Assembly: GCA_012031535.1 (NCBI GenBank) | Contig: JAAUTI010000053.1 | Span: 1-15,115, forward strand | Direction of reading: 5' to 3' | DNA length: 15,115 nucleotides | From: Microcoleus sp. SM1_3_4 | GTDB lineage: Bacteria; Cyanobacteriota; Cyanobacteriia; Cyanobacteriales; Microcoleaceae | In this document: positions 1 to 15,115 of the stretch, piece after piece | Position numbering within the stretch: the stretch's first letter is position 1 | Layout: each line of letters begins with the position of its first letter | Translations under genes and position numbers: made by a program | The notes under the pieces: generated by a model | What the model saw: the letters and a program-made list of their open reading frames with translations, nothing else | The model's database searches: none | Told to the model about the DNA's origin: nothing

Positions 1-92
1 CAAGAGATTTCATTTCACCCTTAACGCTTCTTTCCACCAAACGCAAAATAGTTTTTAGTACCGCCAATATCGCCCGCCAGTAATAAAGCCAT
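1..92 (-). CDS. glk: glucokinase (Glk/ROK family), N-terminal ~30 codons only; gene continues beyond window start
   Basis: Minus-strand translation from the ATG at 92-90 gives MALLLAGDIGGTKTILRLVERSVKGEMKSL. This carries the conserved glucokinase N-terminal ATP-binding motif LLAGDIGGTKT. An AAGGAGG Shine-Dalgarno-like hexamer sits just upstream. An alternative in-frame ATG lies at 110-108. Too short to appear in the ORF track. Confidence 0.55.
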
Positions 93-108
93 AAACCTCC
101 TTAAAGTC

Positions 109-194
109 ATCTGCGTTAATCCGCGTTAATCTGCTCCCATCTGCGGTTGCAATTATCTGCGTTAATCTGCGTTAATCAGCATCAATCTGCGGTT
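109..194. repeat. degenerate tandem decamer/dodecamer repeats ATCTGCGTTAAT / ATCTGCGGTT in the glk upstream / GDE downstream intergenic region
   Basis: Seen directly: ATCTGCGTTAAT at 109-120 and 155-166, CTGCGTTAAT at 121-130 (with C for T) and 167-176, ATCTGCGGTT at 139-148 and 185-194. The same decamer family occurs in inverse orientation (AAACGCAGAT x4) at 4811-4850. Confidence 0.7.
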
Positions 195-242
195 TCCCTC
201 TCGACGAATACTCACACAAGAGGTTTATAAGATTCTGCAAAT

Positions 243-2300
243 CTAACCCTCATTACTGTTAATTGCCAACCAAGCCCGCAACACTTCAGCCACCGTCCAA
301 GCTTGCGCCGTACAGCCCCGAGGTTCAAAGGGGTCATCGCCTTCAAAAATTTCGCCCAAACTGCCCACACCGCCCGCAAGTATATGATGTGCCATCGGTG
401 CCAGCAGTTCGGCAGCTTGTACCGGGTTTTTGTATACATCCAAGTGAGCCAAAACAAAAGAACCGATAAGCCAGCCCCAAACCGTACCCTGATGGTAGGC
501 GCTGTCGCGCTGCAATTGGTCGCCGCCATATTTGCCCCGATACAGGGGATGGTGCGGGGAGAGGCTGCGCAGGCCGAAGGAAGTGAGAAGGTCCTGCGCG
601 CAGGCATCTACTACTGACTTGCGCCGATCGGGCGTGAGTAACGGTGTATACTTGTGAGTTTCTTTCCCCGCACTTTCTTTTGCTGTAAAGGTTTTAGCGG
701 ATAAGTTCAGGGGCAGGGATACGGCAAATATCTGATTGGGGCGTAGGGAAATGTCGTGTCCCCCCGGACCGTCGAGAACGTCGAAACAGTAGCCTGCTTT
801 AGCGTTCCAGAAACGAGTGAATCCGGCTGCCGTGCGATCGGCTAACTTTTGGTATTCATAGTGAGGTTTGCCCAGTTTTTGCGCGAAATCTACCATCGAT
901 TGTATAGCATTGTACCAAAGAGCGCTGAGTTCGATCGGCTTGCCAGTGCGGGGCGTTACCACCCACTTGCCAATTTTGGCGTCCATCCAAGTCAGTTGCG
1001 AGTCTTCCTCACCAGCGTAAACTAAACCGTCGTCGGGATCGACGCGAATTTTATACCGCGTTCCTCGCAAGTGCCAGTCAACTATCTCACATAAAATCGG
1101 CCACAGTTCGCCCAACAGCCGATCGTCCCCAGTGGCATCAACATAGGCGCGAATTGCCTCAAAGTACCACAGCGTCGCGTCTGCGGTGTTGTATTCCGGC
1201 GCGCCGCCGGCATCGGGAAAGCGATTCGGCAGCATTCCCCGATCGACATATCGGGCAAAAGTCCGCAGGATCGATCGGGCAATTTCCCCGCGCCCGGTAC
1301 AGATTGTGAGACCGGGCAGGCTAATCATCGTATCGCGCCCCCAGTCGCTAAACCAGGGATATCCGGCGATGATGGTTTTGCCCTCGGGTTCCCCCGGTAG
1401 CGGGCGCTTGACGATAAATTGGTCTGCAGCTAGGACTAATTGTTCGATCCAATCGGGAGAGTCGCCGGCTTTGGGCCATTTTTGCAGCACTTCCAAATCG
1501 CCCGCACGGCGCATTTCCAAGGCTGCAGTGCCGTCTAAATCGGGATTTTTCGCGGTACTGGCTGCCAAAGTGAGAGACTCCCCCGGCGCGATGGTGAAGT
1601 GGAAAGTTGCGGCGTGCAGGTGATCCTCGCAACATTCGAGCCCGCGCCGCCTTTCTGCTGCGAGGTCAAATCCGTAGTGCCAGTTGTATAAAGGTGTAGA
1701 AACTCGGAATTTCGCCTCGGCTGCAGCATCTGCCAGCAGGTAAAGGGGCGCTGCTGCTGTGAACGCAGTCACGCAAACTCCTGCAGCAGGGGTTTCTACG
1801 GCAATCGGCCAATCGTCCGCGCTTGTCATGTGGTGGTAGTCGCGGTAATTTACTAAAGCTTTGACGGCTAGGGCGATCGGTTTTGAGGCGCGGTGCAAGC
1901 GGTATTGAATATATGTTGTGTTAGCACTTTGTTGCATCCAAATCCGTTTTTCGAGGATGGCGTCAGCGAGGGCAAACCGCCAAACAGGCGTCGTGCCTTC
2001 GAGGTGAAAGCTTTCGATGTATTTGTAGCCTTGGGGTTCGATCGTCCCGTCGGCCCAGCGGTTTGTATAAAGCGGGTAGGCGCGATCGTTATACACCGCC
2101 GTTTCGTCCAGCTTGGCCAGCATCAAAGTCCGTCCCAGCGGGGGTTTGAGTGCCGCCACCAACAAGCCGTGATACCGCCTGGTGAGAAGACCCGCGATCG
2201 TCCCGCTAGCGTAACCGCCGATGCCGTTAGTAACTAACCATTCACGAGACTCGGCAGAGTCCAGATTGCCGCAGATTTCCCGTCCAAAAGCAATAACCAT
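243..2300 (-). CDS. glycogen debranching protein, GDE_N + amylo-alpha-1,6-glucosidase (GDE_C) family, 685 aa, apparently intact
   Basis: ATG at 2300-2298. N-terminus EWLVTNGIGGYASGTIAGLLTRRYHGLLVAAL is the characteristic GDE_N domain signature. The long C-terminal region has the (alpha/alpha)6 amylo-1,6-glucosidase-type motif GYPWFSDWGRDTMISLPGL. Single uninterrupted ORF. Confidence 0.85.
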   Translation of the reverse strand: MVIAFGREICGNLDSAESREWLVTNGIGGYASGTIAGLLTRRYHGLLVAALKPPLGRTLMLAKLDETAVYNDRAYPLYTNRWADGTIEPQGYKYIESFHLEGTTPVWRFALADAILEKRIWMQQSANTTYIQYRLHRASKPIALAVKALVNYRDYHHMTSADDWPIAVETPAAGVCVTAFTAAAPLYLLADAAAEAKFRVSTPLYNWHYGFDLAAERRRGLECCEDHLHAATFHFTIAPGESLTLAASTAKNPDLDGTAALEMRRAGDLEVLQKWPKAGDSPDWIEQLVLAADQFIVKRPLPGEPEGKTIIAGYPWFSDWGRDTMISLPGLTICTGRGEIARSILRTFARYVDRGMLPNRFPDAGGAPEYNTADATLWYFEAIRAYVDATGDDRLLGELWPILCEIVDWHLRGTRYKIRVDPDDGLVYAGEEDSQLTWMDAKIGKWVVTPRTGKPIELSALWYNAIQSMVDFAQKLGKPHYEYQKLADRTAAGFTRFWNAKAGYCFDVLDGPGGHDISLRPNQIFAVSLPLNLSAKTFTAKESAGKETHKYTPLLTPDRRKSVVDACAQDLLTSFGLRSLSPHHPLYRGKYGGDQLQRDSAYHQGTVWGWLIGSFVLAHLDVYKNPVQAAELLAPMAHHILAGGVGSLGEIFEGDDPFEPRGCTAQAWTVAEVLRAWLAINSNEG

Positions 2301-2390
2301 AAGTACACGCTCGCACTGATTTGTTGTCTACCTTTAGGTAGATTTTACACATGATAAAATATGGCATTTTCAACAGTTGAGAAGTGGGAA

Positions 2391-2440
2391 TTGGTAATTC
2401 TCCCACTCTCTCCCTGTTCCCCCTCTCCCCCTCTGCCTTC
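2391..2440. repeat. short dispersed repeat: GGAATTGGTAATTCTCC plus polypyrimidine CCCCTCTCCCCC motif
   Basis: The reverse complement of 2393-2407 (GGAGAATTACCAATT) is identical to 14441-14455. CCCCTCTCCCCC at 2418-2429 equals the reverse complement of GGGGGAGAGGGG at 14399-14410. Located in the divergent GDE/treZ intergenic region. Confidence 0.6.
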
Positions 2441-2863
2441 TTGCTTCATGTAAACTTTTGACCTCGGAAGGTTGACAAATGCAGCATCAGGTTTTACAAC
2501 TCTGGAACCAAGTGTCTGCTGTCCGCTGCCAACAATTAAGCCTTAACTGTTAAAGCAGGGATTTAAACCGGAACTGTCAAATAATCCACCGACACGAGAA
2601 GGGGGATGCGAAACTCTTAATATTTGGTAACTTGGCGATCGGGCTCATACATATTCGTGCTTTAATTTAAACAGCCAACTGCTAATTTTACCTCAGGGAC
2701 AATTCTAGCTGTTGTTCTGTCTGAAGTAAGTTGTCTTTAACTTCTTTTTTAATTCATATTACTTTTCAAATCGATTTTAGGCGATCGGCCTTCAACATAC
2801 CTACTACCACAATACCATTTTCAGCGATCTAGCAAACCTATTTTATCGGGAGACCAGCTAAAA

Positions 2864-4685
2864 GTGAAGATCGGAGCAAATTACTCGGGCAACAACCAAT
2901 GTGAATTTACCGTGTGGGCTCCCACCCTCGATCGAGTAGAACTTCACATTGTTTCGCCGCAAAAACTCCTTATCCCCATGCAAAAAACGGCAGCGGGTTA
3001 TTGGACGGCTACAGTGGCAGACATCCCTCCTGGCACTCTTTATACCTACAAACTTGACGGCACGATCGATCGCCCCGATCCGGCTTCCAAATATCAGCCC
3101 CAAGGCGTACACTCTCCATCCCAAGTAATCGACGATCGCGCTTTTACTTGGACTGAGCCAGGTTGGCAAGGTGTTCCTTTACCGGAATGATAATTTACGA
3201 ACTGCACGTCGGTACATTTACGCCAGCCGGAACTTTTGAGGCAATTATTCCGCAACTCGATCGACTCAAACAACTGGGAATTAATGCCATCGAAATTATG
3301 CCCGTGGCTCAATTCCCGGGCGATCGCAACTGGGGCTACGACGGCGTATATCCCTACGCGGTTCAAAATTCCTACGGCGGCCCGGAAGGCTTCAAAAAAC
3401 TTGTTGACTCCTGCCACCAACAAGGCATTTCCGTAATCCTCGATGTCGTTTACAACCACCTCGGACCTGAAGGCAATTATCTGCGCGACTTCGGCCCCTA
3501 CTTTACATCAAAATACGGTTCTATTTGGGGCGACCCCCTCAACTTCGACGACAAATACAGCGATGAAGTGCGCAACTACTTTATTAAAAACGCCGTATAC
3601 TGGTTTCGAGACTATCATATCGATGCTTTGAGACTCGATGCAATTCAAGCAATATTTGAAGTAGGTGCGAGGCCGTTTTTGCAAGAACTCGCCGACACCA
3701 CAGCCGAACTTTCCCAACAACTAGGACGGAAACTTTATCTAATTGCAGAAAGCGACTTGAATGATGTCCGAGTCCTGCGATCGAAAGAATTCGGCGGCTT
3801 CGGACTCGACGCCCATGGTGCGACGATTTTCACCACGCACTGCACGCGCTACTTACAGGAGAAAATGACCGCTATTACCAAGATTTCGGCAAGTGCGAAC
3901 ACCTAGAAAAAGCCTTCAAAGAAAGCTTTGTTTATTCGGGACAATACGCCCCTCACCGATTGCGCAAACACGGCAATTCTGCCGCAGCCCAACCCGCCCA
4001 CCAATTCCTCGTATTTTCCCAAACCCACGACCAAATCGGCAACCGCATTTTGGGAGACCGGCTATCAAAAATAGTTAATTTTGAAGGATTGAAACTTGCT
4101 GCCGGCACTGTTTTAATTTCTCCTTACATTCCATTTTTATTTATGGGTGAAGAGTATGGAGAAGAAACACCGTTTTTGTACTTTGTTTCCCACTCGGATG
4201 AGAACTTAATTGAAGCCATCCGCAAAGACAAACAGCAAGAATTTAAAATTTTTGAAGATAGGGGAGAATTTCAAGACCCCCAGAGTCCTGAAACTTTCCA
4301 AAACTGCAAATTAGATTGGGAAAAACACACCCAAGGGAAACACAAAATCCTCTGGGAATGGCACCAGCAGCTAATTCAATTGCGGCGGACAATTCCCGCC
4401 CTGAAAAAACTCGACAAAAACAGTTTGGAAGTATTTAGTAGCGAAGCCGAAAAAATCTTATTTCTCCGTCGCTGGGCTGATGACAGCCAGATATTTTGCA
4501 TTCTAAACTTCAACAAGCAAGAAGTTGCTATTACGGCTAAAATTCCTCAAGGTAACTGGGAAAAGATTTTAGATTCGATCGACACTAAATGGCTGGGTAC
4601 AGGTTCAACATTACCTCAAAAGATAACTTCCGAGCAAAAATTGACAGTCCAACCGCAAAGTTTTGCGCTTTATCAATTACAGTAA
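2864..4685 (+). CDS. treZ: malto-oligosyltrehalose trehalohydrolase TreZ (GH13 with N-terminal CBM48/E-set domain). Reading frame broken by two single-base frameshifts (near 3185-3190 and 3811-3816). ORF fragments are 2864-3190, 3163-3906 and 3960-4685.
   Basis: GTG start at 2864. Fragment 1 [20 protein letters not shown]...WQGVPLPE is the E-set/CBM48 N-domain. Fragment 2 contains [11 protein letters not shown]...[10 protein letters not shown]...GYDGV and [19 protein letters not shown] (GH13 catalytic regions). Re-translating across 3811-3830 in the third frame gives [54 protein letters not shown], which joins directly onto fragment 3. The three pieces sum to about 607 aa, the normal TreZ length. 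Both shifts are -1 relative to an intact gene. Confidence 0.88.
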
Positions 4686-4789
4686 ACGGTTCGTAGTGAG
4701 GACTTCATTCCTCAGATTCAGCAGGCTGAAGTTCTCGCTATAAACTAATGCACTTCGCAATTTAAGTAGAAGGAAGAAGGAGTATTCAC

Positions 4790-4893
4790 AATTATTAACT
4801 GTTAACTTTTAACCGCAGATAGATGCAGATAAACGCAGATAAACGCAGATAATTCCTCTTTTTAACTGTCAACTGTCAATTACCAATTACCAC
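4790..4893. repeat. mosaic of short tandem repeats in the treZ-treY intergenic spacer: TTAACTGTTAAC, 4x decamer A(A/G)A(C/T)GCAGAT, 2x CAACTGT heptamer, 2x TTACCAA heptamer
   Basis: Seen directly: AACCGCAGAT AGATGCAGAT AAACGCAGAT AAACGCAGAT at 4811-4850, then TTAACTGTCAACTGTCAATTACCAATTACCAC at 4862-4893. The same modules recur at 109-194 (decamers, inverse orientation) and 14441-14488 (heptamers). STRR-like heptanucleotide repeats are typical of filamentous cyanobacteria. Confidence 0.7.
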
Positions 4894-4899
4894 AATAAA

Positions 4900-7699
4900 A
4901 TGAGAATCCCCACTACAACCTATCGCATTCAATTTCATGCAGGCTTTAACTTTGAAGCAGCCCAACAAATCCTCAGCTATTTAGAAGAATTAGGAATCAC
5001 CGACCTTTACGCTTCACCAATATTTAAAGCCAGAAAAGGCAGCACTCACGGCTACGATGTAGTTGACTCGAATCAGCTAAACCCCGAATTAGGAACCTCC
5101 GAAGACTTTGAAAAACTCATCGGCGAAATCCAGAAACGCAAAATGGGATGGTTGCAAGATATCGTCCCGAATCACATGGCTTACGATACTCAAAATTTGT
5201 TGCTTTTAGACGTACTGGAACACGGGCCGGATTCTGACTATTTCGACTACTTTGATATTGAATGGAATCACAGTTACGAAAATATCAGAGGGCGAGTGTT
5301 AGCGCCGCTGCTAGGCAACTTTTACGGTGAATGTTTGGAAAATGGCGAAATTCAACTCAAGTACGGCGAAAACGGGTTGAGCGTCAATTACTACAGCTTA
5401 GAATTGCCAGTTAGAATCGAATCCTATGCCAAGTTTATCAGTCAAAATTTGGGACACTTAGCCAGGGAATTGGGGAGAAAACATCCCGATTTTATCAAGT
5501 TACTGGGGATACTTTACATGATTAAAAATGTCCCTGCTGAAACTCAAGGTAAGGAAAGGTACGACCAAATAGCGTTCGCCAAAGGCTTGCTGTGGGAACT
5601 CTACAATCAAAATCCCATAGTGCAGAAATTTTTTGAGGATAATATCGAATTTTTCAACGGTGAAAAGGGCAATCCCGAAAGCTTTAATCCGCTGGATAAT
5701 TTACTATCCGATCAGTTTTACCGCCTTTCTTTCTGGAAAGTGGGTGCTGAAGAAATTAACTACCGGAGATTTTTTACTGTCAACGAACTGATTTCAGTAA
5801 AAGTTGAAGAGCTCAAAGTTTTTCTCAAGAACCAAGATTTGATTTTCGATCTGGTTGAAGAGGGGAATTTCACGGGATTGAGAATTGACCATATTGACGG
5901 ACTTTACGATCCTACGGAATATTTAGAAAGACTGAGAAAGAAAATCGGAGATACTTACATTGCTGTTGAAAAAATTCTCGAACACAAAGAAGATTTGCCC
6001 TCTTATTGGCCGATTCAAGGAACCAGCGGCTACGATTTTTTAAACTATGTAAACGGTGTTTTTTGTCGGTGCGATCGCGAGCAACAATTTAGCGATATCT
6101 ATCACAGATTTACTCGTTTAAATACGCCCTACGAACAGTTATTTCTCGCTAAAAAGACCTTGATTATCGAAAAGAATTTAGCGGGAGATGTAGACAATCT
6201 TGCTCAACTTTTAAAAACAATATCCGGCCATTCCCGACAAGGAAATGATTTTACCCGCCGCGGCTTAGAACAAGCACTTTCTGCTGTTTTGGCAATTTTT
6301 CCTGTTTACCGAACTTACATTAATCAAGATGGTTTGCGAGAGTCCGATCGCACTTATGTAAAAGAGGCAATTGCCCAAGCAAAAGAACAAGTACCGCTGC
6401 TGCTGAAAGAAATCGATTTCATCGAAAAACTGCTGTTATTAGAAGAAGAAGAAACCGTAACTTCAGAACAAAAAGCCTACCGCCGCCACTTCGTCATGAA
6501 GCTGCAGCAACTAACAGGCCCGCTGATGGCAAAAGGCGTTGAAGACACACTTCTATACGTCTACTACCGTCTTTTATCCCTCAACGAAGTCGGAGGAAAT
6601 CCCAGTCAATTCGGTGTTTCCCTAGCAGATTTTCACGAGTTCAACCAACAGCAGCAACAGGTTTGGCCGCACAAAATGAATGCTACAGCTACCCACGACA
6701 CCAAACGCGGGGAAGACGTGCGAGCTCGAATTAACATCCTCTCAGAAATTCCCGAAGAATGGGAACAGCAAGTCAAATCTTGGCGAGAAGTAAACTCTGC
6801 CAAAAAGTTAACTTAGTGAATCGCATAGTTCCCGATACTAACGATGAATACTTCTTTTACCAAACTTTAGTCGGCACTTTTCCATTTGAGGGAATTGAAA
6901 ATACAGATTATATCGATCGCATCAAAAATTATGTCATCAAAGCCGTCCGCGAAGCGAAAGTTCACACTGCTTGGCTGCGGCCGGATAACAAATATGAAGA
7001 AGGTTTTATTACCTTTGTCGATCGGGTTTTGGAACCTGGGGAATCAAATCAATTTCTCAAAAAATTTCAGCCTTTCTGCAAAAAGTAGCCCTCTACGGAA
7101 TTGGCAATTCTTTATCTCAAACCCTGCTCAAAATTGCATCACCGGGCATTCCCGACATTTATCAAGGAACGGAATTTTGGGATTTGAGTCATGTCGATCC
7201 TGACAACCGCCGCCCGGTAGATTTTGAACGCCGGATCGAGGTTTTGCAGGAAATAAAACAGAGATCGGAGGCGGATATTTTGCAACTGATTGAGGAGTTG
7301 ATAGCAACGCGAGAAGATGCTAGAATTAAACTATTCCTAACCGCCAGACTTCTCGCATCCCGCAAACAGTACCGCGAAGTTTTTGCCCGAGGCAATTACC
7401 AGCCACTAACAGTAACTGGCCCTTTTAAAGATAGTATTATTGCTTTTGCCAGAAGCTGGGGAAACACGACAATTATGGCTGTTGCCCCTCGATTTGTGAC
7501 CAGCGTTGTTGCGCCGGAAGCAATGGCGATCGGCAAAGAAATCTGGGAAGATACGGAGTTAGAATTGCCGCCAGGAATGCCTGTTGTTTGGCAGGATGCG
7601 GTGACAAATCAGACGCTAGAAAGTGACGGTACGCTGGAAATTTCTGAAGTCTTGAAATACTTTCCTGCTGCGATGGCGATCGGGCAAAATAGCAATTAA
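4900..7699 (+). CDS. treY: malto-oligosyltrehalose synthase TreY (GH13). Frame broken by two single-base frameshifts (near the A5 run at 6801-6805 and near 7072-7085). ORF fragments are 4900-6816, 6759-7088 and 7184-7699.
   Basis: ATG at 4900. N-terminus TYRIQFHAGFNFEAAQQILSYLEELGITDLYASPIFKARKGSTHGYDVVDSNQLNPELG...DIVPNHMAY is the TreY signature. Fragment 2 (NDEYFFYQTLVGTFPFEG) and the third frame read from 7077 (FLQKVALYGIGNSLSQTLLKIASPGIPDIYQGTEFWDLSHVDPDNRRPVDFERR) continue the family alignment without a gap. Total length about 933 aa, as expected for TreY. Confidence 0.88.
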
Positions 7700-7724
7700 A
7701 GAGTCGATCGTATCCCAGGCTAAA

Positions 7725-7797
7725 GACACAACAATGTTGTGTCCCTACAAGTAATATTTATTTTATCATTTGTAGGGACACGGCACTGCCGTTTCCT
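7725..7797. terminator. cluster of nested/adjacent palindromes between convergent treY and MVP genes; candidate bidirectional intrinsic terminator
   Basis: GACACAAC-AAT-GTTGTGTC (8-bp stem, 7727-7745). A 12-bp perfect inverted repeat GTGTCCCTACAA ... TTGTAGGGACAC (7739-7750 / 7770-7781) with a 19-nt AT-rich loop. ACGGCA-C-TGCCGT (7779-7791) followed by TTTCC. An AT/T-rich run ATATTTATTTTATC follows the first hairpin on the plus strand. Confidence 0.35.
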
Positions 7798-7807
7798 TCA
7801 TCTATTT

Positions 7808-10459
7808 CTAGCTTTCATTCGCCCCAGAACCGATCAAACCTTGAGCCGCGTTAAATAAATTGATCGGATTTTTCCCATCAGTAATTAACACGCTTTGAAT
7901 GCCGAGAGATTGCAAAAGTTTAGCCTGCATTTCCGGTCCGGCTTGTGCCATTGCTTTCAAAGTTTCAGGCCCGATAGCCTCTACTTTTTCCCGGAATTCC
8001 GCACTGGTAATTTCCGCCATTCGCTGGGCTTTCTCAATTTCTAGAGTGCTTAGGGCTTGTTGGTGGGCTAATTCTGCTTCCTGTCTGGCCCTCATTTGCG
8101 CCAATTCTCCCTCGGCGCGAATTCTGGCTGCTTCCGCTTCCTGCTGTGCCAAATTCACTGCTAATTCGCCTTGAATTTCGCGCTGCTTCTGCTTTTCGCC
8201 CTCGCTTCGGCTGTCGCGTGCCCGGTAGATTCGATCGCAATATTTTCTGCCTGCAATTCTAACAGATTTTTGCGTTCGGATTCCGCCGCACCCTTATCTA
8301 CAATTGCCTGTCTTTCCAATCTAGCTTTTGCCTCTTGTTCGATGCGGGCTGCATCGTGCTTCGCAGCAGCTTCTTGAGCGTCAGTGGTAATTTGAATTGC
8401 AATTTGTACCGATTTTTGCAAACTTTTTAACGTTGCTTCATCGATCGGTTCGACTGATTGAATGTCAATATTAGTAATGACCAAACTGTTAGTTTTAAAC
8501 CGAAATTCATCTCCGATCCGACCGTCTTCGCTGACGCCAAATACAGCATGGCGGATAATTCGTGCCGAATTGCGGTGGAATTCATCAAACTTTTCTCCCG
8601 CAACTGCACCGCGAACCGAGAGGCAATTGCCTTGCAAGCATCTCCTACAAAATCGGGAACTTGAAACAGTTTTGCCGCCGCTTGTTCGTCGTGCCGCACG
8701 AGATCGAAATACCAGTTATAAGATAGCTGAATTTGCAAGCGAGCGTGATCCGATGTTTCTACAGTAAAAACATCAGTCATAAAATCTGGACCCAGCAACA
8801 AAGCTAAAGATTTAATCGCATTCGGCTTTTTCGGTTTGCCGCCAGACAAACTGAGAACTGTAAACGCTTCATCCGGCCCCAACATCACCAAATCCGGCCC
8901 GAATACAGTGCGGGCAGTGCGATTTTTGTAATCGTGAATTTGCACTGCGGAATTTTGGGGAACGTGGAACACAACTGCCCTGGTTTTATCCCGCAAAACC
9001 TGCATTTCCGAGTGGGCAACACCGCGCAATTGCTGCATTCCGCGATCGGAAATCGGATCGCTTTTTTGTGCTAGCAATTCTTCAACAACTGGCGGCAATT
9101 CTTTTTCCCAAAGTTCCTCGTAAGGACTCAGCATATATGCTTGCGGCCCGCCCACTAATCGGAGTTCTCCTGTTTGGATATCGCGCACGTAAATGCCTTC
9201 ATTCTTATCCAGAGGAATCGCTTTTCGCTTTTCCACAACTTCTACTTCGACGCGGGGAATGTAATCGCGCGGTCCGGAAATCATCCATAAATCCCCCGGT
9301 TGGTGGGAAACTAGATTGTCGCTTTCTCCCTCATTAAAAGCTTCTTTCGCTCTCAATAACAGTGCTTCTTGTTCGCTGAGAACGTAAACTGTTGAATCCC
9401 GCCTTCCAAGATTCTCCCGGATGCAGGAAAAGAAGCTCGACCTGGCGGACTTCTTCAGTCCAATTGAGGCTTACCATCCGCATCAATTGGATCGAGAACA
9501 ATGCACCATTGACGATCGCCCAAAGTAGCAATTTCTACTTCTCCTACTACTTCTTCGTACACGTCGGGAATGTGAATTTCTGCATCTTCAAACGTCACCA
9601 ACCATTCATCGCCCGCTTTTCTCTGCCGCCCGAAAACATCAGTAAAAGTGCGTTTAGCCTTCAAATGCAGGGCTTTTCGTTCCGTCAAAACACAAGCATT
9701 AATAATGTTGACAACAGCTTCATCAACTCCCGGCAAATAAGCACCTTCATCCCTCACCAACCATTCTTCACCAGCGCGGCGGCGGTTTCCTTGCCTGTCA
9801 GTACAAGATTGTCGGGCGATTAAGCGCAAAGCTTGATTCGGTTTAATTACTACAGATTTCACCGTTTCTACAACTTCAACTTCCACGCGCGGCAAATAAG
9901 TTCCCGGCCCTTCAAACAGCCATTCATCCCCAGCCAAACGATTAATTGTTTGACCTTCAGATTCACTTTCTCCTGCCGTTGCTGTAGGGGCAATCCCCCC
10001 GTGGCTGCCCCGCATGGGAGGAGTATCTGCAAAATCTCGCAGTGCTCGGAGGCGCAATGCTTGATTGGTTTCGACAACCTGCAAGCGAGTCACATCCTGC
10101 TCTAATTCTTCTCCCGGATACAGGGCAAAAGGTTCTTGAGCAAAGCGAACTTCTGCATCGCCGTAGCGCAATTTAATTTGTCCGTGAGGGTCAGCAATCG
10201 GTTGATTTTCTGCATCACGGAGGACGGGATTAGCAACAATACAATAGTAGCGCGGCGGCACGATTAGCATCGGTTCCGGTCTTAAAATCAGCCGTTCGTG
10301 GTCGCGCAAAGTGATTGTTTGCGGGCCGACTTCTAGCCTGGTAATGCCCGTATTGTTATCGATGACATGAATGTATTGCTGCGGCTTCAGGCGAATAATG
10401 CCGCTAGAAATCCCCAAAGTTTCACCTTTGTTATCGCGTTTTAGTTCGCTGGTATTCAT
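7808..10459 (-). CDS. Major Vault Protein (MVP) homologue, about 884 codons, full eukaryote-like architecture. Frame broken by four single-base frameshifts (near 9455, 9405, 8613 and 8195). ORF fragments are 9455-10459, 8427-9356, 8161-8637 and 7808-8158.
   Basis: ATG at 10459-10457. The translation matches MVP along its whole length, as I recall the eukaryotic protein. N-terminal repeat region: [20 protein letters not shown]...[12 protein letters not shown]...[20 protein letters not shown]...[22 protein letters not shown]...GEEWLV...[22 protein letters not shown]. Middle: [44 protein letters not shown]...[15 protein letters not shown]...[26 protein letters not shown]...[11 protein letters not shown]...[15 protein letters not shown]...[19 protein letters not shown]. 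Shoulder/cap-helix: [27 protein letters not shown]...[11 protein letters not shown]...[25 protein letters not shown]-terminus: [49 protein letters not shown]. Re-translation across the junctions restores continuity (e.g. [21 protein letters not shown] joins fragment 1 to 2; [15 protein letters not shown] joins 2 to 3). Confidence 0.9.
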
Positions 10460-10552
10460 GATGTTAATAGTTGGTTGTAGGCTGTTTTTCTGGTAGTTGA
10501 GATGCGACTTGGATGGCGATTGTAATGGAGGTTTTTAAACAGTTGACTTGTA

Positions 10553-10628
10553 ATTTGTAGGGTGCGCACTGCGCACCTTACCTGCAAATAATTTGTAGGG
10601 TGCGCACTGCGCACCTTACCTGCAAATA
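10553..10628. repeat. perfect tandem duplication of a 38-bp unit ATTTGTAGGGTGCGCACTGCGCACCTTACCTGCAAATA; each unit contains the palindrome GGTGCGCA-C-TGCGCACC; lies in the MVP upstream region
   Basis: Seen directly: 10553-10590 and 10591-10628 are identical. Inner palindrome arms are GGTGCGCA/TGCGCACC. Outer near-inverted arms are ATTTGTAGG/CCTGCAAAT (8 of 9). The 10-mer ATTTGTAGGG followed by a palindrome centred on GCACTGC also occurs at 7768-7791, downstream of the MVP stop. Confidence 0.8.
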
Positions 10629-10804
10629 GCTGTTCAAATTACTGCGTGGATGAATCCTGTATCAGTTATGTTGTGTCGATCGTACTCTCTCTCTTGTGGG
10701 AGTTACAAACTTGTAACAAAACTACAAAATGTTACATCCAAAAAGTGAAGCTGCTGCCTATTGAGAAAGGTGAAAGATCTCAGATATAACTCAGATCTTG
10801 CAGC

Positions 10805-10885
10805 AATGTCAAAAACCGGGTTTCTGGAAAAAACTCTGCATAAAAACAGATATTTTTCATCAGAAACCCGGTTTCTCGCTTGGTT
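10805..10885. repeat. copy 1 of a dispersed ~75-bp element carrying two AAACC-N-GGTTT palindromes with 51-bp centre-to-centre spacing
   Basis: AAACC-G-GGTTT at 10813-10823 and AGAAACC-C-GGTTTCT at 10862-10876; centres at 10818 and 10869. Arms CCGGGTTTCTG and CAGAAACCCGG can also pair as an 11-bp stem. Second copy at 13228-13305 with identical 51-bp spacing and similar internal sequence ((A)GTATTTTC..C(A/C)(C/G)AAACCCGGTTTC). Located between the protease stop and the MVP upstream repeats. Confidence 0.7.
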
Positions 10886-10919
10886 ATTGAGAATGCTGCA
10901 AGATGTCAAATATAACAGA

Positions 10920-11750
10920 CTATTCTTCTTCGGGTTGGCCTTCAAAAGTTTCCTCAAATCCGGCTAAAAAGTCATCCAAAGCTTCAGCAGAAATTGCCAA
11001 ATTGATGCTGTCGGCTTCTTCCCAACCCCACGTATTCACCCCGACAACTTGACCGGCTGCATTAATTAACGGGCCGCCCGAATTTCCCGGATTGATCGCC
11101 GCATCAGTTTGCAATATTTTCACTTCCGCAATATCGCTGTCTTCGTCCTCTCCTTCTTCATACTCGTCGGGTTCGCGAATTGCACTAATAATGCCCTGGG
11201 TTACAGTTGCAGCAAACTCCCCTAGAGGATTTCCTACCGCAATTACTGGATCTCCCACTTTGACATCAAAAGACAGTTCTAGGGGTGCATATTCTTGAGG
11301 AGATTCTACTTGTTCTCCGGTTTCCGGGTTGATGATAAAATCCGTAACTAATAGCAAAGCTAAATCTTCTTCCGCATTGCCGGTAAAAACTACTTCGGCC
11401 AGCCGCATTTGTCCGCCGTAAGTTTCCACTAAAACCAGTTCTACTTCATCTTCTTCGTAAAAATAATCTTCCTCGGCAATATCTTCGATTACGTGATAGT
11501 TAGTTACAATGATGTCAGGGGAGACAAAGAAGCCGCTGCCGGAGGAAATTTCTTCTTCTAAATCCCAATCCATGACATACACTGAAACTACGGAGGGCAA
11601 GACTCGATCGACTGCACCAGCAAAGTTGCCCGAATGAGTTTTGAGTTCCTTCACTTGCTGCTGCAAAGCTTCACGATCGGCCTCCATTTTGCGGTAAAGT
11701 TGCTGAACTTTTTCCACTTCTAACTTTAGTGTACTTTCCAGATCGCTCAT
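10920..11750 (-). CDS. trypsin-like serine protease (S1/HtrA-type catalytic domain, no PDZ domain, no signal peptide) with N-terminal coiled-coil and highly acidic insertions and C-terminal tail
   Basis: ATG at 11750-11748 with a GAAAGG Shine-Dalgarno-like motif upstream. Catalytic-triad motifs in canonical order: TNYHVIED (His), DLALLLV (Asp), INPGNSGGPLIN (Ser, GNSGGP). N-terminal heptad-like segment LKLEVEKVQQLYRKMEADREALQQQVKELK. Acidic runs EEDYFYEEDEVEL and EPDEYEEGEDEDSD, the latter where HtrA proteases have a short loop. Acidic C-terminal tail FEETFEGQPEEE. Confidence 0.8.
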   Translation of the reverse strand: MSDLESTLKLEVEKVQQLYRKMEADREALQQQVKELKTHSGNFAGAVDRVLPSVVSVYVMDWDLEEEISSGSGFFVSPDIIVTNYHVIEDIAEEDYFYEEDEVELVLVETYGGQMRLAEVVFTGNAEEDLALLLVTDFIINPETGEQVESPQEYAPLELSFDVKVGDPVIAVGNPLGEFAATVTQGIISAIREPDEYEEGEDEDSDIAEVKILQTDAAINPGNSGGPLINAAGQVVGVNTWGWEEADSINLAISAEALDDFLAGFEETFEGQPEEE

Positions 11751-12006
11751 ATTTTGCCTTTCCCCAATTTAGATAAATTGCTGGTTGCTTTTGCGAGATG
11801 CTTAATTGTAGCTGGAGGGAGAGGGCAACCGCGGGGGGTTGCTCCTACTTTCGCGCCATATATAGAGGTCATTAGTAAGTTCCGCACCATCTAGACTTTT
11901 CCACCTGAAACCTACAATTGTCTGCGACTTTACCTGCTGGTTAGCAGCGGCTGGCAAGTCATTTTTACTGCTGGTAAGCTGAGTGAAGGCTAGAGATTTT
12001 CACGCT

Positions 12007-12980
12007 CTAAGAACCGCGCTGAACTTCGACAAAAATCTCCTCTAAAATTTCCTGCGCTCCTTGTTTGCGCAAGCGGTGAGCGAGGTCAATTCCCAACATT
12101 TCGGCTGTTTCGGCAGCACCTGTTACAGTGTCTTTGACTAACCGCTTGCCGTCGAGACTGGCTACCATGCCGGTTAAAGTTAATTGACCGTTTTCTATGT
12201 TAGTATTAACGCCGATCGGCACTTGACAGCCGCCTTCCAATTCCCGCAAAAATGCGCGTTCGGCATAACACCGTTGGGCGGTTTCCGAATGTTCTAAAGC
12301 TTTAATTACTTGTAGAATTTCTGGATCTCCGGCGCGGCATTCAATCCCCAAAGCACCCTGTCCGACAGCGTGCAAAGAGATTTCGGGAGCGATAATTTGA
12401 TGGATGCGATCGCTCATTCCCAATCTTTCCAATCCCGCCACTGCTAAAATAATTGCATCGTAACCGCCCTCATCCAATTTGGCGAGTCTAGTGTTAAGAT
12501 TGCCGCGAATATCTTTAAAATTCAAAATGAGGGAAATGGTGGCGCAATTGGGCGAGCCGGCGCAGGGAAGAAGTGCCGATAACAGCACCTTCTGGCAGGG
12601 TATCGAGTTGCTTGTCTTTGTGTTTTTTCGTGAACTACGAGGGCGTCAGCAGGATTTTCCCGTTCGGTGACGCATCCTAAAATTAAACCTTCGGGTAAAT
12701 TGGTAGGCAAATCCTTGAGGGAATGAACGGCAAAGTCCGTTTCATTGTTCAGCATTCCCGTTTCTAATTCTTTTGTAAAAAGTCCTTTATCGCCGATTTT
12801 GGCTAGGGCGACATCAAGAATTTTATCGCCTTGCGTGGCCATCGTGTGGACTTCAAAAGTACGTTCGGGAAAGTGTTTCTGAAGCTGTGCTTGCACCCAA
12901 TGAGTTTGAACGAGGGCGAGTTGGCTTTTGCGAGAACCGATGCGGACGGTTCTGGAGGGGGCAGATGCGATCGGAGACAT
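12007..12980 (-). CDS. hemC: porphobilinogen deaminase (hydroxymethylbilane synthase) HemC. Frame broken by two homopolymer indels (A6 on the coding strand at plus-strand 12623-12628 and T4 at plus-strand 12517-12520). ORF fragments are 12522-12980 and 12007-12588.
   Basis: ATG at 12980-12978. N-terminus [21 protein letters not shown]...[20 protein letters not shown]...[12 protein letters not shown] is the HemC signature. After VVHEK the frame is lost. Reading one base over gives [37 protein letters not shown] second shift then gives [33 protein letters not shown]...[10 protein letters not shown]...GGCQVPIG (fragment 2). Total about 324 aa. Removing one A from the A6 run and one T from the T4 run restores a single ORF. 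Confidence 0.9.
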
Positions 12981-13227
12981 AGGAACGATGCTTATTTAGG
13001 AGCAGATATATTTACCCCATCTAGCCTACCGCAGGTGGGGACTTTAATTGCTGGTTGGCGCAATTCGGGCGATAAAATAGAAATATCAGATTTCGATCGC
13101 AAGTAGCAGCAATGCTTTCTTGTGTTTCCAGTCAAGCATTTGGTCTAGCAAACTGAGCCGCCATCGAGATTGTTGGCGAAATGCTGCGGGCGATGCGGGA
13201 TTGGCTAACACGGGGGACTGACGCACT

Positions 13228-13305
13228 CCCACGCCTAGAAACCAGGTTTTTTATCTTTGCTGTTGGCCGCCACGAAGTATTTTCTCCACAAACCCGGTTT
13301 CACCG
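13228..13305. repeat. copy 2 of the paired AAACC-N-GGTTT palindrome element (51-bp spacing), in the divergent hemC / Panacea-gene intergenic region
   Basis: AAACC-A-GGTTT at 13239-13249 and AAACC-C-GGTTT at 13290-13300; centres at 13244 and 13295. Sequence preceding the second palindrome (AGTATTTTCTCCACAAACCCGGTTTC) parallels copy 1 (AGATATTTTTCATCAGAAACCCGGTTTC). Confidence 0.7.
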
Positions 13306-13364
13306 TCCCCATATATAAGTTCTAACTCAAAAAAAATCTCACATCTTAAATCCACAATCCAAAA

Positions 13365-13393
13365 TCTTTTTAAACCAGCAAATATCTTATAAT
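13365..13393 (+). promoter_or_regulatory. candidate sigma70-type promoter for the Panacea-domain gene (perfect -10 TATAAT at 13388-13393, weak -35)
   Basis: Consensus TATAAT hexamer 39 nt upstream of the ATG at 13432. Only a weak T-rich -35 (TTTAAA 13369-13374). The paired palindrome element lies 90-190 bp further upstream. Confidence 0.25.
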
Positions 13394-13431
13394 TACAAGT
13401 AAATTTGTCAAATTACTCAAATTCTCAAATT

Positions 13432-13887
13432 ATGAAAAGTGCTCTGGATGTAGCTCGTTACTTTTTATGTCGGGTCGATCGAGAATCAGGCGATACTATT
13501 TCTCTGCTCAAATTGCAAAAGCTCGTGTATTACGCTCAAGCTTGGAGTTTAGTTTTTAGAAGCCAGCCGCTATTTTTTCAAGATGTTGAAGCTTGGGTTT
13601 CCGGCCCTGTTGTCCGCGATGTTTGGAATGAATACAAAGCTTACAAATATAGCGATATTCCCGTTCCCGATAACTTTGATGGAGAATTTGAGGAAGATGA
13701 ACTCGAAGTTCTCGAAGAAGTTTGGAATGCTTATGGAGAATTAAGTGCTAAACATTTGGCAGAACTAACGCACTCAGAGATGCCTTGGTTAAACGCTCGC
13801 AAGGGATTAGAACCTGCGGAAACATCAACTAACATCATCTCTCACGATGATATGAAAGACTGCTATTCATCTTTGGTAGAGGCATAA
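13432..13887 (+). CDS. Panacea-domain (DUF4065, SocA/PanA-like) protein; putative type II antitoxin
   Basis: The ORF track begins at a TTG (13405). The first ATG is at 13432 (MKSALDVARYF...). The core DTISLLKLQKLVYYAQAWSLVFRSQPLFFQDVEAWVSGPVVRDVWNEYKAY matches the DUF4065/Panacea signature (hydrophobic LKLQKL(L/V)YYAQ..., then AW..GPVV..V(Y/W)..YK). Acidic C-terminal half. Confidence 0.65.
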   Translation: MKSALDVARYFLCRVDRESGDTISLLKLQKLVYYAQAWSLVFRSQPLFFQDVEAWVSGPVVRDVWNEYKAYKYSDIPVPDNFDGEFEEDELEVLEEVWNAYGELSAKHLAELTHSEMPWLNARKGLEPAETSTNIISHDDMKDCYSSLVEA

Positions 13888-14325
13888 GTGGGAAAAAAGA
13901 ATCAAATACCAAAACCACCTCAAAAACAACAAAGAAAAATTCCAGAAGCAGCAACCCTGTTAAGCCAACCAAGCAGTACAGATAACGAGCATCCTAGCTT
14001 CCGATTTACCTATGCAGATAAAAATCGTTGGCTGCTGTCCGATTGGACAGCATCAGAAATCAATGACCTAATTGCAGGACTGAAGAAAATTGAAAAATAT
14101 ACTTGGGCTCAAATCAAAGGTCATGGCTCAAAAAAACGAGGTGAATCAGTAGGAACGGGTTATAAGTTAATTGACACCCATCCGACTTTGCCTGACAATA
14201 TTCCTGAAGATGAAAGATTATCAGAGATGCGAATTGATGAGAAAAAACGGATATTTGGGTTTCGCGTTCAATCTGTTTACTACATCGTTTGGTTCGATCG
14301 CGACCATTCTGTTTGTCCAGAATAA
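13888..14325 (+). CDS. hypothetical protein, possible RelE/HigB-superfamily-like toxin partner of the upstream Panacea protein; GTG start immediately after the upstream TAA stop, in the same reading frame
   Basis: Uninterrupted 145-codon ORF with no internal ATG before codon ~110. The C-terminal region GYKLIDTHPTLPDN...RIFGFRVQSVYYIVWFDRDHS resembles, as I recall it, the HigB/RelE C-terminus (YKLHPLKGD...WRITFQF.NGDAYILNYEDYH). The N-terminal ~40 residues are low-complexity (K/Q/P-rich). Assignment by eye only. Confidence 0.4.
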   Translation: MGKKNQIPKPPQKQQRKIPEAATLLSQPSSTDNEHPSFRFTYADKNRWLLSDWTASEINDLIAGLKKIEKYTWAQIKGHGSKKRGESVGTGYKLIDTHPTLPDNIPEDERLSEMRIDEKKRIFGFRVQSVYYIVWFDRDHSVCPE

Positions 14326-14390
14326 AACTTAGAGTTTTTAGATACAGTTTAATTGTACAGCAATTTACTCAAATCCTCACAGAAGGAAAA

Positions 14391-14488
14391 AGGAAAAGGG
14401 GGAGAGGGGAATATTTTAGATTTTAGATTGGGAGATTTGGAGAATTACCAATTACCAATTACCAATTACCAACTATCAACTGTCAACT
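14391..14488. repeat. short tandem repeat mosaic: GGGGGAGAGGGG, GGAGAATTACCAATT, 4x TTACCAA heptamer, CAACT(A/G)T heptamers
   Basis: Seen directly: AAAAGGGGGAGAGGGG (14395-14410), GGAGAATT(ACCAATT)x3 ACCAACTATCAACTGTCAACTG (14441-14488). Related in inverse orientation to 2391-2440 and in direct orientation to 4862-4893. Confidence 0.7.
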
Positions 14489-14492
14489 GAAT

Positions 14493-15115
14493 TTATCGTT
14501 GTCCCGATCGAATTGCGGAATTTGCTATTTGTACGACTTCTTGCTGCGTGCCATTTTTCCTGCTTACTCGATACAGTACGCCCAACCTTTGCCACTCAAC
14601 AAACGCATTGCAGTAAGCACCGCATTTATTAAAATACATCGCTTTCATTCCCCCTGCTAATTCTATACTCCTGTAAGTATCGCGCGGCAAATTAGAAGGC
14701 GGTGAAAAGGGTTCGCTTCTGATAGCTTCGATCGTCCCGAAATAGCAAGTTCTCGTGCGGCATCCTTTACCTAAATACATTCTCACGATGTAACCGTGGG
14801 AGCCTGCTTGCACGTCAAATTCGAGTTGCTGAGTGGCAGGTAAAAACAGCCTGCTGGGCAGAAATACAGGCACTCGCGTTTTGCCTTTAATTTGCTTAAA
14901 TATGTTATTTGCCGGAAAAGAACTGTTAGCTTTTTGCGTGCCTGAATTTTCGATCGGCCGTAATTGTTTGGCAAACTTCCGCCACTCTGAAAATCTGTTT
15001 TTAACGATATTGAAAGTAGGAATTAAATATTTTTCCACAGCCACAGATTGGCGGTTATTTGGGAGTTGGAAATTGCGACGGATGGTCGTTGTTTCTGGTT
15101 TCCCCAATCCGTAAG
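14493..15115 (-). CDS. hypothetical protein, C-terminal 204+ codons; ORF runs off the right window edge (N-terminus not in window)
   Basis: Long minus-strand ORF open to the window end, stop at 14493. Contains a Cys-containing C-terminal region (GKGCRTRTCYFG...YFNKCGAYCNAFVEWQRLGVLYRV). I could not place it in a family by eye. Coding-like composition. Confidence 0.45.
   Translation of the reverse strand, partial: YGLGKPETTTIRRNFQLPNNRQSVAVEKYLIPTFNIVKNRFSEWRKFAKQLRPIENSGTQKANSSFPANNIFKQIKGKTRVPVFLPSRLFLPATQQLEFDVQAGSHGYIVRMYLGKGCRTRTCYFGTIEAIRSEPFSPPSNLPRDTYRSIELAGGMKAMYFNKCGAYCNAFVEWQRLGVLYRVSRKNGTQQEVVQIANSAIRSGQR

Follow-up and report, generated by a model that had tools for sequence, protein, structure and literature searches.

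Disagreement between assemblies points to homopolymer-length errors, not gene decay, in the split treZ, treY, MVP and hemC genes of a Microcoleus MAG contig

Four genes, treZ, treY, MVP and hemC, are split by frameshifts in a 15,115-bp MAG contig of Microcoleus sp. SM1_3_4 (the window, by which we mean the whole stretch of DNA analysed), and the disagreement between assemblies leads us to consider these frameshifts sequencing or consensus errors, and the genes themselves intact, with a probability of about 0.95. The lesions are changes in homopolymer length that are private to this assembly and are gone in near-identical independent assemblies, the limits to this observation being the run at 6802–6806, where the sister MAG RU_3_3 agrees with the window, and treZ. 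The first-pass annotation, made from the sequence alone, had likewise favored homopolymer sequencing error over gene decay, a reading now supported by sister MAGs, Logan assemblies and matches of the repaired proteins. Pfam upheld its four gene identities, as did NCBIfam and Pfam searches with the proteins after repair, and the list of ORFs agrees that each gene is split into several. It had, however, counted ten single-base frameshifts, where the alignments give 15 events amounting to 16 bases: its two each for treZ, treY and hemC stand, but the four it gave MVP become nine events totalling 10 bases when that gene is aligned to three near-identical assemblies. Reversion of the 15 events yields one ORF for each gene (Table 1).

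The assemblies compared were four sister MAGs, namely Microcoleus sp. SU_5_6 (contig L081, GCA_012030855.1), CSU_2_1 (L086), RU_3_3 (L087) and CSU_2_2 (L074), which come from one common study and whose methods are not fully independent, and Logan assemblies of two raw runs, SRR14117739 (L082) and SRR11470445 (L088), which are independent assemblies with coverage limited to 10591–13662. Near-identical (>99%) reference sequence starts at 4650, and positions 1–4650 of the window, with treZ, were judged by relatives of at most 94% DNA identity. The SU_5_6 contig aligns to 4650–15115 at 99.81%, with five mismatches, all at 14802–14862; over 4650–14801 (~10.1 kb) there are 0 substitutions and 14 indel events, and at 13 of these 14 sites the window is out of frame and SU_5_6 is in frame. 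Among the 13 lesions from 6802 to 12628, 12 are contradicted by all covering assemblies (SU_5_6, CSU_2_1 and RU_3_3 from 7080 to 12628, joined by both Logan assemblies for hemC), the exception being 6802–6806, where RU_3_3 also has A5. The comparison with independent data and orthologous loci that the first-pass annotation advised has in effect been made, with sister MAGs, Logan contigs and relatives against the window at the lesions they cover, apart from RU_3_3 at that site and one of 66 related loci at 3186–3187.

All 15 events are changes in homopolymer length, at runs that truly measure 2–6 bases; 11 are under-calls and 4 are over-calls, and short runs of 2–3 bases and A5/A6 runs are hit equally often. 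A random deletion would be expected to change a homopolymer with a chance of 0.51 and a random insertion with a chance of 0.42, so the joint chance for all 15 is roughly 0.51^11 x 0.42^4, or about 2e-5. Clumped events have the same sign within every clump, which, together with the presence of six events in 70 nt (9392–9461), is what one would expect of single bad reads rather than of independent mutations.

Table 1. Split genes and the homopolymer events within them (window coordinates; run lengths refer to the forward strand unless stated).
Feature	Position	Strand	Description
treZ (malto-oligosyltrehalose trehalohydrolase)	2864..4685	+	3 ORFs, two 1-base under-calls; one 607-aa ORF after repair
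Lesion 1, treZ	3186..3187	+	A2 vs A3 in relatives (GGAATG vs GGAAATG); 1 base short
Lesion 2, treZ	3815..3815	+	Single A vs two bases in relatives (CCCATGG vs CCCAATGG or CCCAGTGG); 1 base short
treY (malto-oligosyltrehalose synthase)	4900..7699	+	3 ORFs, two A6-to-A5 under-calls; one 933-aa ORF after repair
Lesion 3, treY	6802..6806	+	A5, correct A6; A5 also in RU_3_3
Lesion 4, treY	7080..7084	+	A5, correct A6
Bacterial major vault protein (MVP) homologue	7808..10459	-	5 ORFs, 9 window-private indel events; one 885-aa ORF after repair
Lesion 5, MVP	8176..8178	+	T3, correct T2; one base fewer in SU_5_6, CSU_2_1, RU_3_3
Lesion 6, MVP	8193..8196	+	T4, correct T3; SU_5_6, CSU_2_1, RU_3_3 all against window
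Lesion 7, MVP	8616..8617	+	C2, correct C3 (coding strand CGG vs CGGG); CCC in SU_5_6, CSU_2_1, RU_3_3
Error cluster, lesions 8–13, MVP	9392..9461	+	Six under-calls, 7 bases, 70 nt
Lesion 8, MVP cluster	9392..9393		T2, correct T3
Lesion 9, MVP cluster	9408..9409		A2, correct A3
Lesion 10, MVP cluster	9428..9431		A4, correct A6 (two bases)
Lesion 11, MVP cluster	9441..9442		C2, correct C3
Lesion 12, MVP cluster	9454..9455		T2, correct T3
Lesion 13, MVP cluster	9460..9461		C2, correct C3
hemC (hydroxymethylbilane synthase)	12007..12980	-	3 frames, two 1-base over-calls; one 323-aa ORF after repair
Lesion 14, hemC	12517..12520	+	A4 (coding-strand T4), correct three; three in SU_5_6, CSU_2_1, RU_3_3, SRR14117739, SRR11470445
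Lesion 15, hemC	12623..12628	+	T6 (coding-strand A6), correct five; five in SU_5_6, CSU_2_1, RU_3_3, SRR14117739, SRR11470445

Both hemC lesions had been located and read exactly in the first-pass annotation, as the three sister MAGs and two Logan assemblies that cover them attest. An alignment to P0004 put the extra T in the first T4 run (12524–12527), a placement that these same five assemblies exclude in favor of 12517–12520. The repaired HemC is exactly NJK73423.1, NJM61726.1 and NJR25029.1, proteins deposited from the sister MAGs, is present in Logan assemblies too, and matches positions 1–292 of 293 of TIGR00212 at 365.6 bits (cut-off 164).

In treY, two A5 runs are each one A short, as had been proposed, the coordinates given for them (6801–6805 and 7081–7085) being off by one. 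The run at 7080–7084 is one base longer in SU_5_6, RU_3_3, L001 and 71 of 71 related loci. The repaired TreY is letter-for-letter NJK73425.1 of Microcoleus sp. SU_5_6 and matches positions 1–835 of 838 of TIGR02401 at 941.3 bits (cut-off 498.65); compared with L003, the TreY of the window is identical at 851 of 931 residues with 0 in-frame stops, the figure for the intact L001 TreY being 865 of 948. The A5 that the window and RU_3_3 have in common at 6802–6806 may reflect either an error that recurs at this A6 run or a genuine polymorphism. Under the latter, tract length at some sites, this one among them, would truly vary within the population and the consensus would have taken the minor allele, and it speaks for this that the two MAGs with A5 were assembled from different samples. 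We nevertheless regard such polymorphism as extremely unlikely: A6 is the longest tract class affected and hence the one most prone to error, which by itself would lead one to expect recurrence; RU_3_3 is error-prone itself, with four other private indels (at 6429, 7107, 8417 and 10857); the site lies ~1.9 kb into treY, away from the 5' end; SU_5_6, L001 and all 69 related loci examined there are one base longer; and A6 is short by comparison with known phase-variable tracts.

For treZ, the base missing at 3186–3187 is present in 65 of 66 related loci and that missing at 3815 in 70 of 70. A frameshift-aware alignment to the TreZ of L003 shows two frameshifts, 0 in-frame stops and 578 of 643 residues identical, similar to the 584 of 647 obtained with the intact TreZ of L001; TreZ and TreY thus show no other signs of decay in either respect, having no in-frame stops and an identity to L003 like that of intact L001. 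The repaired TreZ matches positions 1–544 of 545 of TIGR02402 at 734.6 bits (cut-off 538.8). The protein collection holds no exact copy of it, a near-identical assembly seemingly being absent, and neither allele of the treZ sites was found in JGI metagenome contigs.

Lesions in MVP were placed with near-identical DNA, which superseded distant protein references that located them approximately and introduced spurious shifts (at 9071 and 8977 with P0251). The earlier suggestion that a CGG near 8613 should read CGGG, restoring ASRVRGAV, is confirmed by the sister MAGs at 8616–8617. A single shift had been assigned to 8185–8200; there are instead two insertions, at 8176–8178 and 8193–8196, and removal of the extra base at the former restores ...AKAEAARIQGE... 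The same two insertions rule out one deletion at 8193–8196 as the cause of the C-terminal shift. The stretch from 9395 to 9460, for which the first-pass annotation had a lower count, proved to hold six events, at 9392–9461; at all six SU_5_6, CSU_2_1 and RU_3_3 are mutually concordant against the window, and the corrected translation matches cyanobacterial MVPs. The repaired protein contains Vault, Vault_2, Vault_3, Vault_4 and MVP_shoulder domains (215 bits for Vault and 174.5 bits for MVP_shoulder) and is identical at 884 of 885 residues to the frameshift-corrected translations of SU_5_6 and RU_3_3. A search of the protein collection for this exact sequence gave no hit, which is unsurprising given that all the sister copies carry frameshifts of their own.

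Alternatively, one could suppose that slipped-strand indels have recently turned the four genes of SM1_3_4 into genuine pseudogenes, possibly in a lineage deficient in mismatch repair, and that a second hemC copy or neighbouring cells make up for the lost hemC function. Homopolymers are also sites of replication slippage, the A5 at 6802–6806 recurs in a second MAG, and MVP is completely clean in none of the four sister MAGs; as in true pseudogenes of reductive evolution, there are several frameshifts per gene, adjacent genes are affected and protein accessions are lost. However, each of the four sister assemblies is broken at positions of its own, and of the 15 lesions in the window just one, at 6802–6806, recurs in a sister MAG, so that the lesions do not look inherited. 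Slippage would also have had to produce 14 indels against 0 substitutions over the ~10.1 kb aligned to SU_5_6, to pack six deletions into 70 nt and to act on tracts of just 2–3 bases, all without in-frame stops or added amino-acid divergence. True pseudogenes of reductive evolution differ from the window in these respects, as the latter has no substitution load, in-frame stops, large deletions or lesions shared with relatives, and counts among its affected genes hemC, which is indispensable for all tetrapyrrole synthesis in phototrophs. Truncated products of the window are on record in none of the other assemblies, in an index that seemingly lacks the window's own contig. We thus consider pseudogenisation very unlikely. 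The chance is similarly slight that a minority of the tract differences (e.g., treY 6802–6806) are real, or that MVP is in parallel, independent inactivation across co-existing Microcoleus lineages.

The location of several lesions in coding-strand A5/A6 or T-rich runs would also be compatible with programmed recoding, in which ribosomal frameshifting or transcriptional slippage at A/T runs would give full-length proteins from the split frames. A true recoding site would be expected to show conservation of the frameshift, but the orthologues show none, those in 65–71 relatives and in the near-identical assemblies being in frame at the lesion positions. In addition, a single gene with as many as nine shifts, plus and minus and many at runs of 2–3 bases, matches no known recoding signal, and neither an Rfam frameshift element nor any other Rfam family was found in the window, where tRNA and tandem-repeat scans likewise gave nothing bearing on the frameshifts. 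The probability of recoding is therefore next to negligible.

Sequencing or consensus error, by contrast with these alternatives, has counterparts in the sister MAGs. The MVP of SU_5_6 carries a deletion private to that assembly at window position 9382, a site at which the window is correct, CSU_2_1 has a private indel at window position 7989, and the treY of CSU_2_2 is one base short relative to 75 relatives. These observations indicate that homopolymer indel errors run through the whole MAG series (SM1_3_4, SU_5_6, CSU_2_1, CSU_2_2 and RU_3_3).

Such errors have been described before. In the first closed genome of Clostridium autoethanogenum, homopolymer artefacts were accompanied by false frameshift annotation of genes, with about 240 discrepancies per 4.35 Mb, more than 90% of them in runs longer than 4 (PMC4687164). 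The window resembles homopolymer-error assemblies (454, Ion Torrent, PacBio CLR, Nanopore) in that its indels are confined to homopolymers and split even indispensable genes, its lesions vanish in independent sequence and the orthologues are intact. Unlike in C. autoethanogenum, 2–3-base runs are hit as often as those of 5–6, runs are miscounted in both directions, and the events are much denser (13 over the ~10.5 kb with near-identical reference) and clumped, six falling within 70 nt. This density and clumping point to very low local coverage in the MAG rather than to systematic platform bias alone. In all probability, short homopolymers were miscounted during base-calling or consensus building of a low-quality MAG contig, most likely in patches where the consensus came from one or few poor reads, and the annotation pipeline would then have taken the broken frames for pseudogenes. 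The source of error may have been a flow-based platform (Ion Torrent, 454) or unpolished long reads, with low local coverage; the sequencing platform or assembly method of the MAG series was not found in the literature searched.

The value of this finding is practical only, as it concerns an ordinary data-quality artefact, yet one that could mislead users who infer the presence or absence of pathways (TreY/TreZ trehalose, tetrapyrrole), count pseudogenes or survey bacterial vault proteins. Handling treZ, treY, MVP and hemC as intact is justified; the first-pass annotation had advised this for the TreY/TreZ pathway and MVP, and repair gives full-length, family-typical ORFs.

Two further observations concern the GDE gene. 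Its accession, NJL66333.1, and that of the serine protease, NJL66334.1, are consecutive, and this numbering implies that treZ, treY and MVP have no protein records, which suggests that the annotation did take these genes for pseudogenes. Separate from the 15 events, GDE has two compensated −1/+1 pairs relative to L001–L003, at 665/674 and 1779/1789, which were considered as possible hidden errors too; the second pair is probably natural, judging from its position in a variable stretch, where it is in phase with CSU_2_2 and L050.

We found that the frameshifts in treZ, treY, MVP (the bacterial major vault protein homologue) and hemC comprise 15 events affecting 16 bases (11 under-calls and 4 over-calls; see the table). 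The first-pass annotation had counted ten, which is too low because MVP has nine events and not four. Its description of the hemC lesions matched the comparison with sister assemblies exactly, its reading of CGG for CGGG near 8613 in MVP was correct, and the A5 runs it blamed in treY are indeed lesions, with coordinates off by one. All 15 events change the length of a homopolymer, an outcome expected by chance for 51% of random deletions and 42% of random insertions. Six are packed into 70 nt (9392-9461), and within each local clump the errors share a sign: minus at 3187/3815, at 6806/7084 and throughout 9392-9461, plus at 8178/8196 and 12517/12623. Such same-sign clumps may reflect single poor reads dominating thinly covered patches.

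Indel events in the window, with the run length seen in relatives or sister assemblies
Gene	Position	Strand of run	Run in window	True run
treZ	3186-3187	+	A2	A3
treZ	3815	+	A1	A2
treY	6802-6806	+	A5	A6
treY	7080-7084	+	A5	A6
MVP	8176-8178	+	T3	T2
MVP	8193-8196	+	T4	T3
MVP	8616-8617	+	C2	C3
MVP	9392-9393	+	T2	T3
MVP	9408-9409	+	A2	A3
MVP	9428-9431	+	A4	A6
MVP	9441-9442	+	C2	C3
MVP	9454-9455	+	T2	T3
MVP	9460-9461	+	C2	C3
hemC	12517-12520	+	A4	A3
hemC	12623-12628	+	T6	T5

The identities of the four genes were upheld by Pfam matches on the fragments (CBM_48, alpha-amylase and DUF3459 for treZ; alpha-amylase for treY; Porphobil_deam and its C-terminal domain for hemC) and, for MVP, by repeat domains detected in homologues of the window gene. 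The ORF table agrees that each is split, into three pieces for treZ and treY, five for MVP and, for hemC, two pieces that overlap and a short frame that bridges them. The glycogen-debranching enzyme (GDE) gene (243-2300, minus strand, 685 aa) encodes a protein 100% identical to NJL66333.1, "MAG: glycogen debranching protein", and the order GDE-treZ-treY is common to related loci of Microcoleus, Tychonema or Oscillatoriales (80 species-representative genomes). When 81-nt segments around each treZ and treY break were aligned to all fetched loci (for treZ, references all at ≤99% identity to the window), the window was one base short at 3187 against 65 of 66 loci, at 3815 against 70 of 70, at 6806 against 69 of 69 and at 7084 against 71 of 71; the comparison with orthologous loci that had been suggested earlier thus contradicts the window at these breaks. 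Frameshift-aware protein-to-DNA alignment gave exactly two shifts and no in-frame stops in each of treZ and treY, whose amino-acid identity to the orthologues in the related locus L003 roughly equals that of the intact L001 copies, and two extra bases in hemC. Programmed recoding to restore the proteins is excluded, since the orthologues are in frame.

Closer references were reached through the intact serine protease gene (10920-11750), for which exact look-up returned a 23.4-kb contig of GCA_012030855.1 (L081, the sister MAG SU_5_6) and three Logan read-assembly contigs, and cluster-mate look-up added contigs of two more sister MAGs (L086 from CSU_2_1 and L087 from RU_3_3) and two more Logan contigs; the sister MAGs used as references come from one study. 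Over 4650-15115, L081 is 99.81% identical to the window, with five mismatches (all at 14802-14862) and 14 indel events, and across the ~10.1 kb holding treY, MVP and hemC there are no substitutions, homopolymer lengths alone differing. L081 is in frame at 13 of the 14 sites; at the other (window 9382) the window is correct, and a one-base deletion in MVP is private to L081. At each lesion in MVP and hemC, L086 and L087 carry the run length of L081 and not that of the window, and the Logan contigs L082 (SRR14117739) and L088 (SRR11470445) also contradict the window at the hemC lesions.

Undoing the 15 events yields single uninterrupted ORFs for TreZ (607 aa), TreY (933 aa), MVP (885 aa) and HemC (323 aa). 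The repaired TreZ, TreY and HemC match TIGR02402 (1-544 of 545), TIGR02401 (1-835 of 838) and TIGR00212 (1-292 of 293), each well above the curated cut-off, and the Vault repeat and shoulder domains of MVP are all present. At every residue repaired TreY equals NJK73425.1 and repaired HemC equals NJK73423.1, NJM61726.1 and NJR25029.1, the latter protein also being present in Logan assemblies; the truncated products of HemC (152 aa), TreY (638 aa) and MVP (334 aa) are absent from the other assemblies of the collection. The earlier attribution to sequencing error is thus borne out by the sister and Logan comparison and by the repair, and from sequence comparison the frameshifts very probably (about 0.95) arose when homopolymer lengths were miscounted in the consensus of a MAG with low coverage. 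Genuine pseudogenisation of the four genes is most improbable: it would need 15 indels to be fixed without any substitution, with six inside 70 nt and many in runs of two or three bases, in a lineage with intact closest relatives, and it would have to take in hemC, which a phototroph requires for haem and chlorophyll. The frameshift pattern is not a biological feature.

The sister MAGs are affected likewise, each with private homopolymer indels that the other sisters contradict. L081 (position 12375) reads GTTCTC as GTCTC in MVP; L086 has T4 for T5 at window position 7989; L087 has A4 for A5 at 6429, A3 for A2 at 7107, T4 for T5 at 8417 and T6 for T5 at 10857; and in L074 (CSU_2_2), at position 8765, treY is one base short against 75 relatives. 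No private indels were found in the Logan contigs over the stretches covered, and if the assemblies are put to a majority vote, every gene comes out intact. L087 also carries the A5 of the window at 6802-6806, which could be taken for a real polymorphism; this has a very low probability, a recurrent error in the longest tract class being simpler. Judged from these alignments, no window lesion is inherited, the error process would span the whole dataset, and the SU_5_6, CSU_2_1, RU_3_3 and CSU_2_2 series should be treated as indel-prone. Contigs in the sister MAGs bear NODE labels of the SPAdes type, which give coverages of 6x and 18x. GCA_012034575.1 ('Richelia sp. CSU_2_1') holds both L001 (93.8-96.8% to the window) and L086 (99.5%), so that this bin seems to mix two strains; the two contigs overlap at the MVP 3' end, and the 'Richelia' label is at odds with their Microcoleus-like sequences.

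In the window assembly, the accessions of GDE (NJL66333.1) and the protease (NJL66334.1) are consecutive, and we therefore infer that treZ, treY and MVP were annotated as pseudogenes in SM1_3_4. In SU_5_6, NJK73423-25 are hemC, protease and TreY, MVP being skipped, and by this numbering MVP would lack a protein record there too. The first closed Clostridium autoethanogenum genome had 243 discrepancies, of which >90% lay in homopolymers of more than four bases, and its annotation placed frameshifts in genes where they would otherwise be lethal (PMC4687164). There as here, homopolymer miscalls led to false frameshift or pseudogene annotations, and the window differs in degree alone, its lesions being denser, strongly clumped, of both signs and in short runs too; they are the familiar homopolymer-miscall artefact.

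Once repaired, the MVP gene (7808-10459, minus strand) encodes a bacterial, full-length homologue of the major vault protein of eukaryotes, with Vault repeats, a shoulder domain and a helical region at the C-terminus. Its identity is 45-57% to MVPs from eukaryotes and metagenomes and 62-77% to a few other copies from cyanobacteria. Synteny with the window stops just past treY (about 7700) in most Microcoleus relatives, and MVP beside treY thus appears lineage-specific. Upstream of the MVP start lies a perfect 38-nt tandem duplication (10551-10628) with the palindrome GGTGCGCACTGCGCACC.

All five substitutions that separate the window from L081 in 10.4 kb cluster within 61 nt inside a hypothetical ORF (14493-15107, minus strand) in which no Pfam domain was found; L086 equals the window there, and in L081 the cluster could mark a strain variant or a short recombined stretch. 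At 13405-13887 (plus strand) lies a gene with a SocA/Panacea antitoxin domain (PF13274), and the ORF directly after it (13888-14325, plus strand, 145 aa) matches no family; the pair looks like a two-gene toxin-antitoxin-type arrangement. Within GDE, two compensated -1/+1 homopolymer differences from the related loci L001-L003 (665-674 and 1779-1789) keep the frame and each alter three residues (ESAG versus EVRG; PAAG versus LLQG or LPQG); the pair at 1779-1789, in phase with L074 and L050, is probably natural. Further repeats are the 10-nt tandem unit ATCTGCGTTA (155-191), which recurs as the reverse complement at 4810-4852, and 4.3 copies of the heptamer AATTACC at 14443-14472, and in the GDE-treZ spacer (2388-2560) the window is missing the 21-, 21- and 24-nt repeat units of L001.
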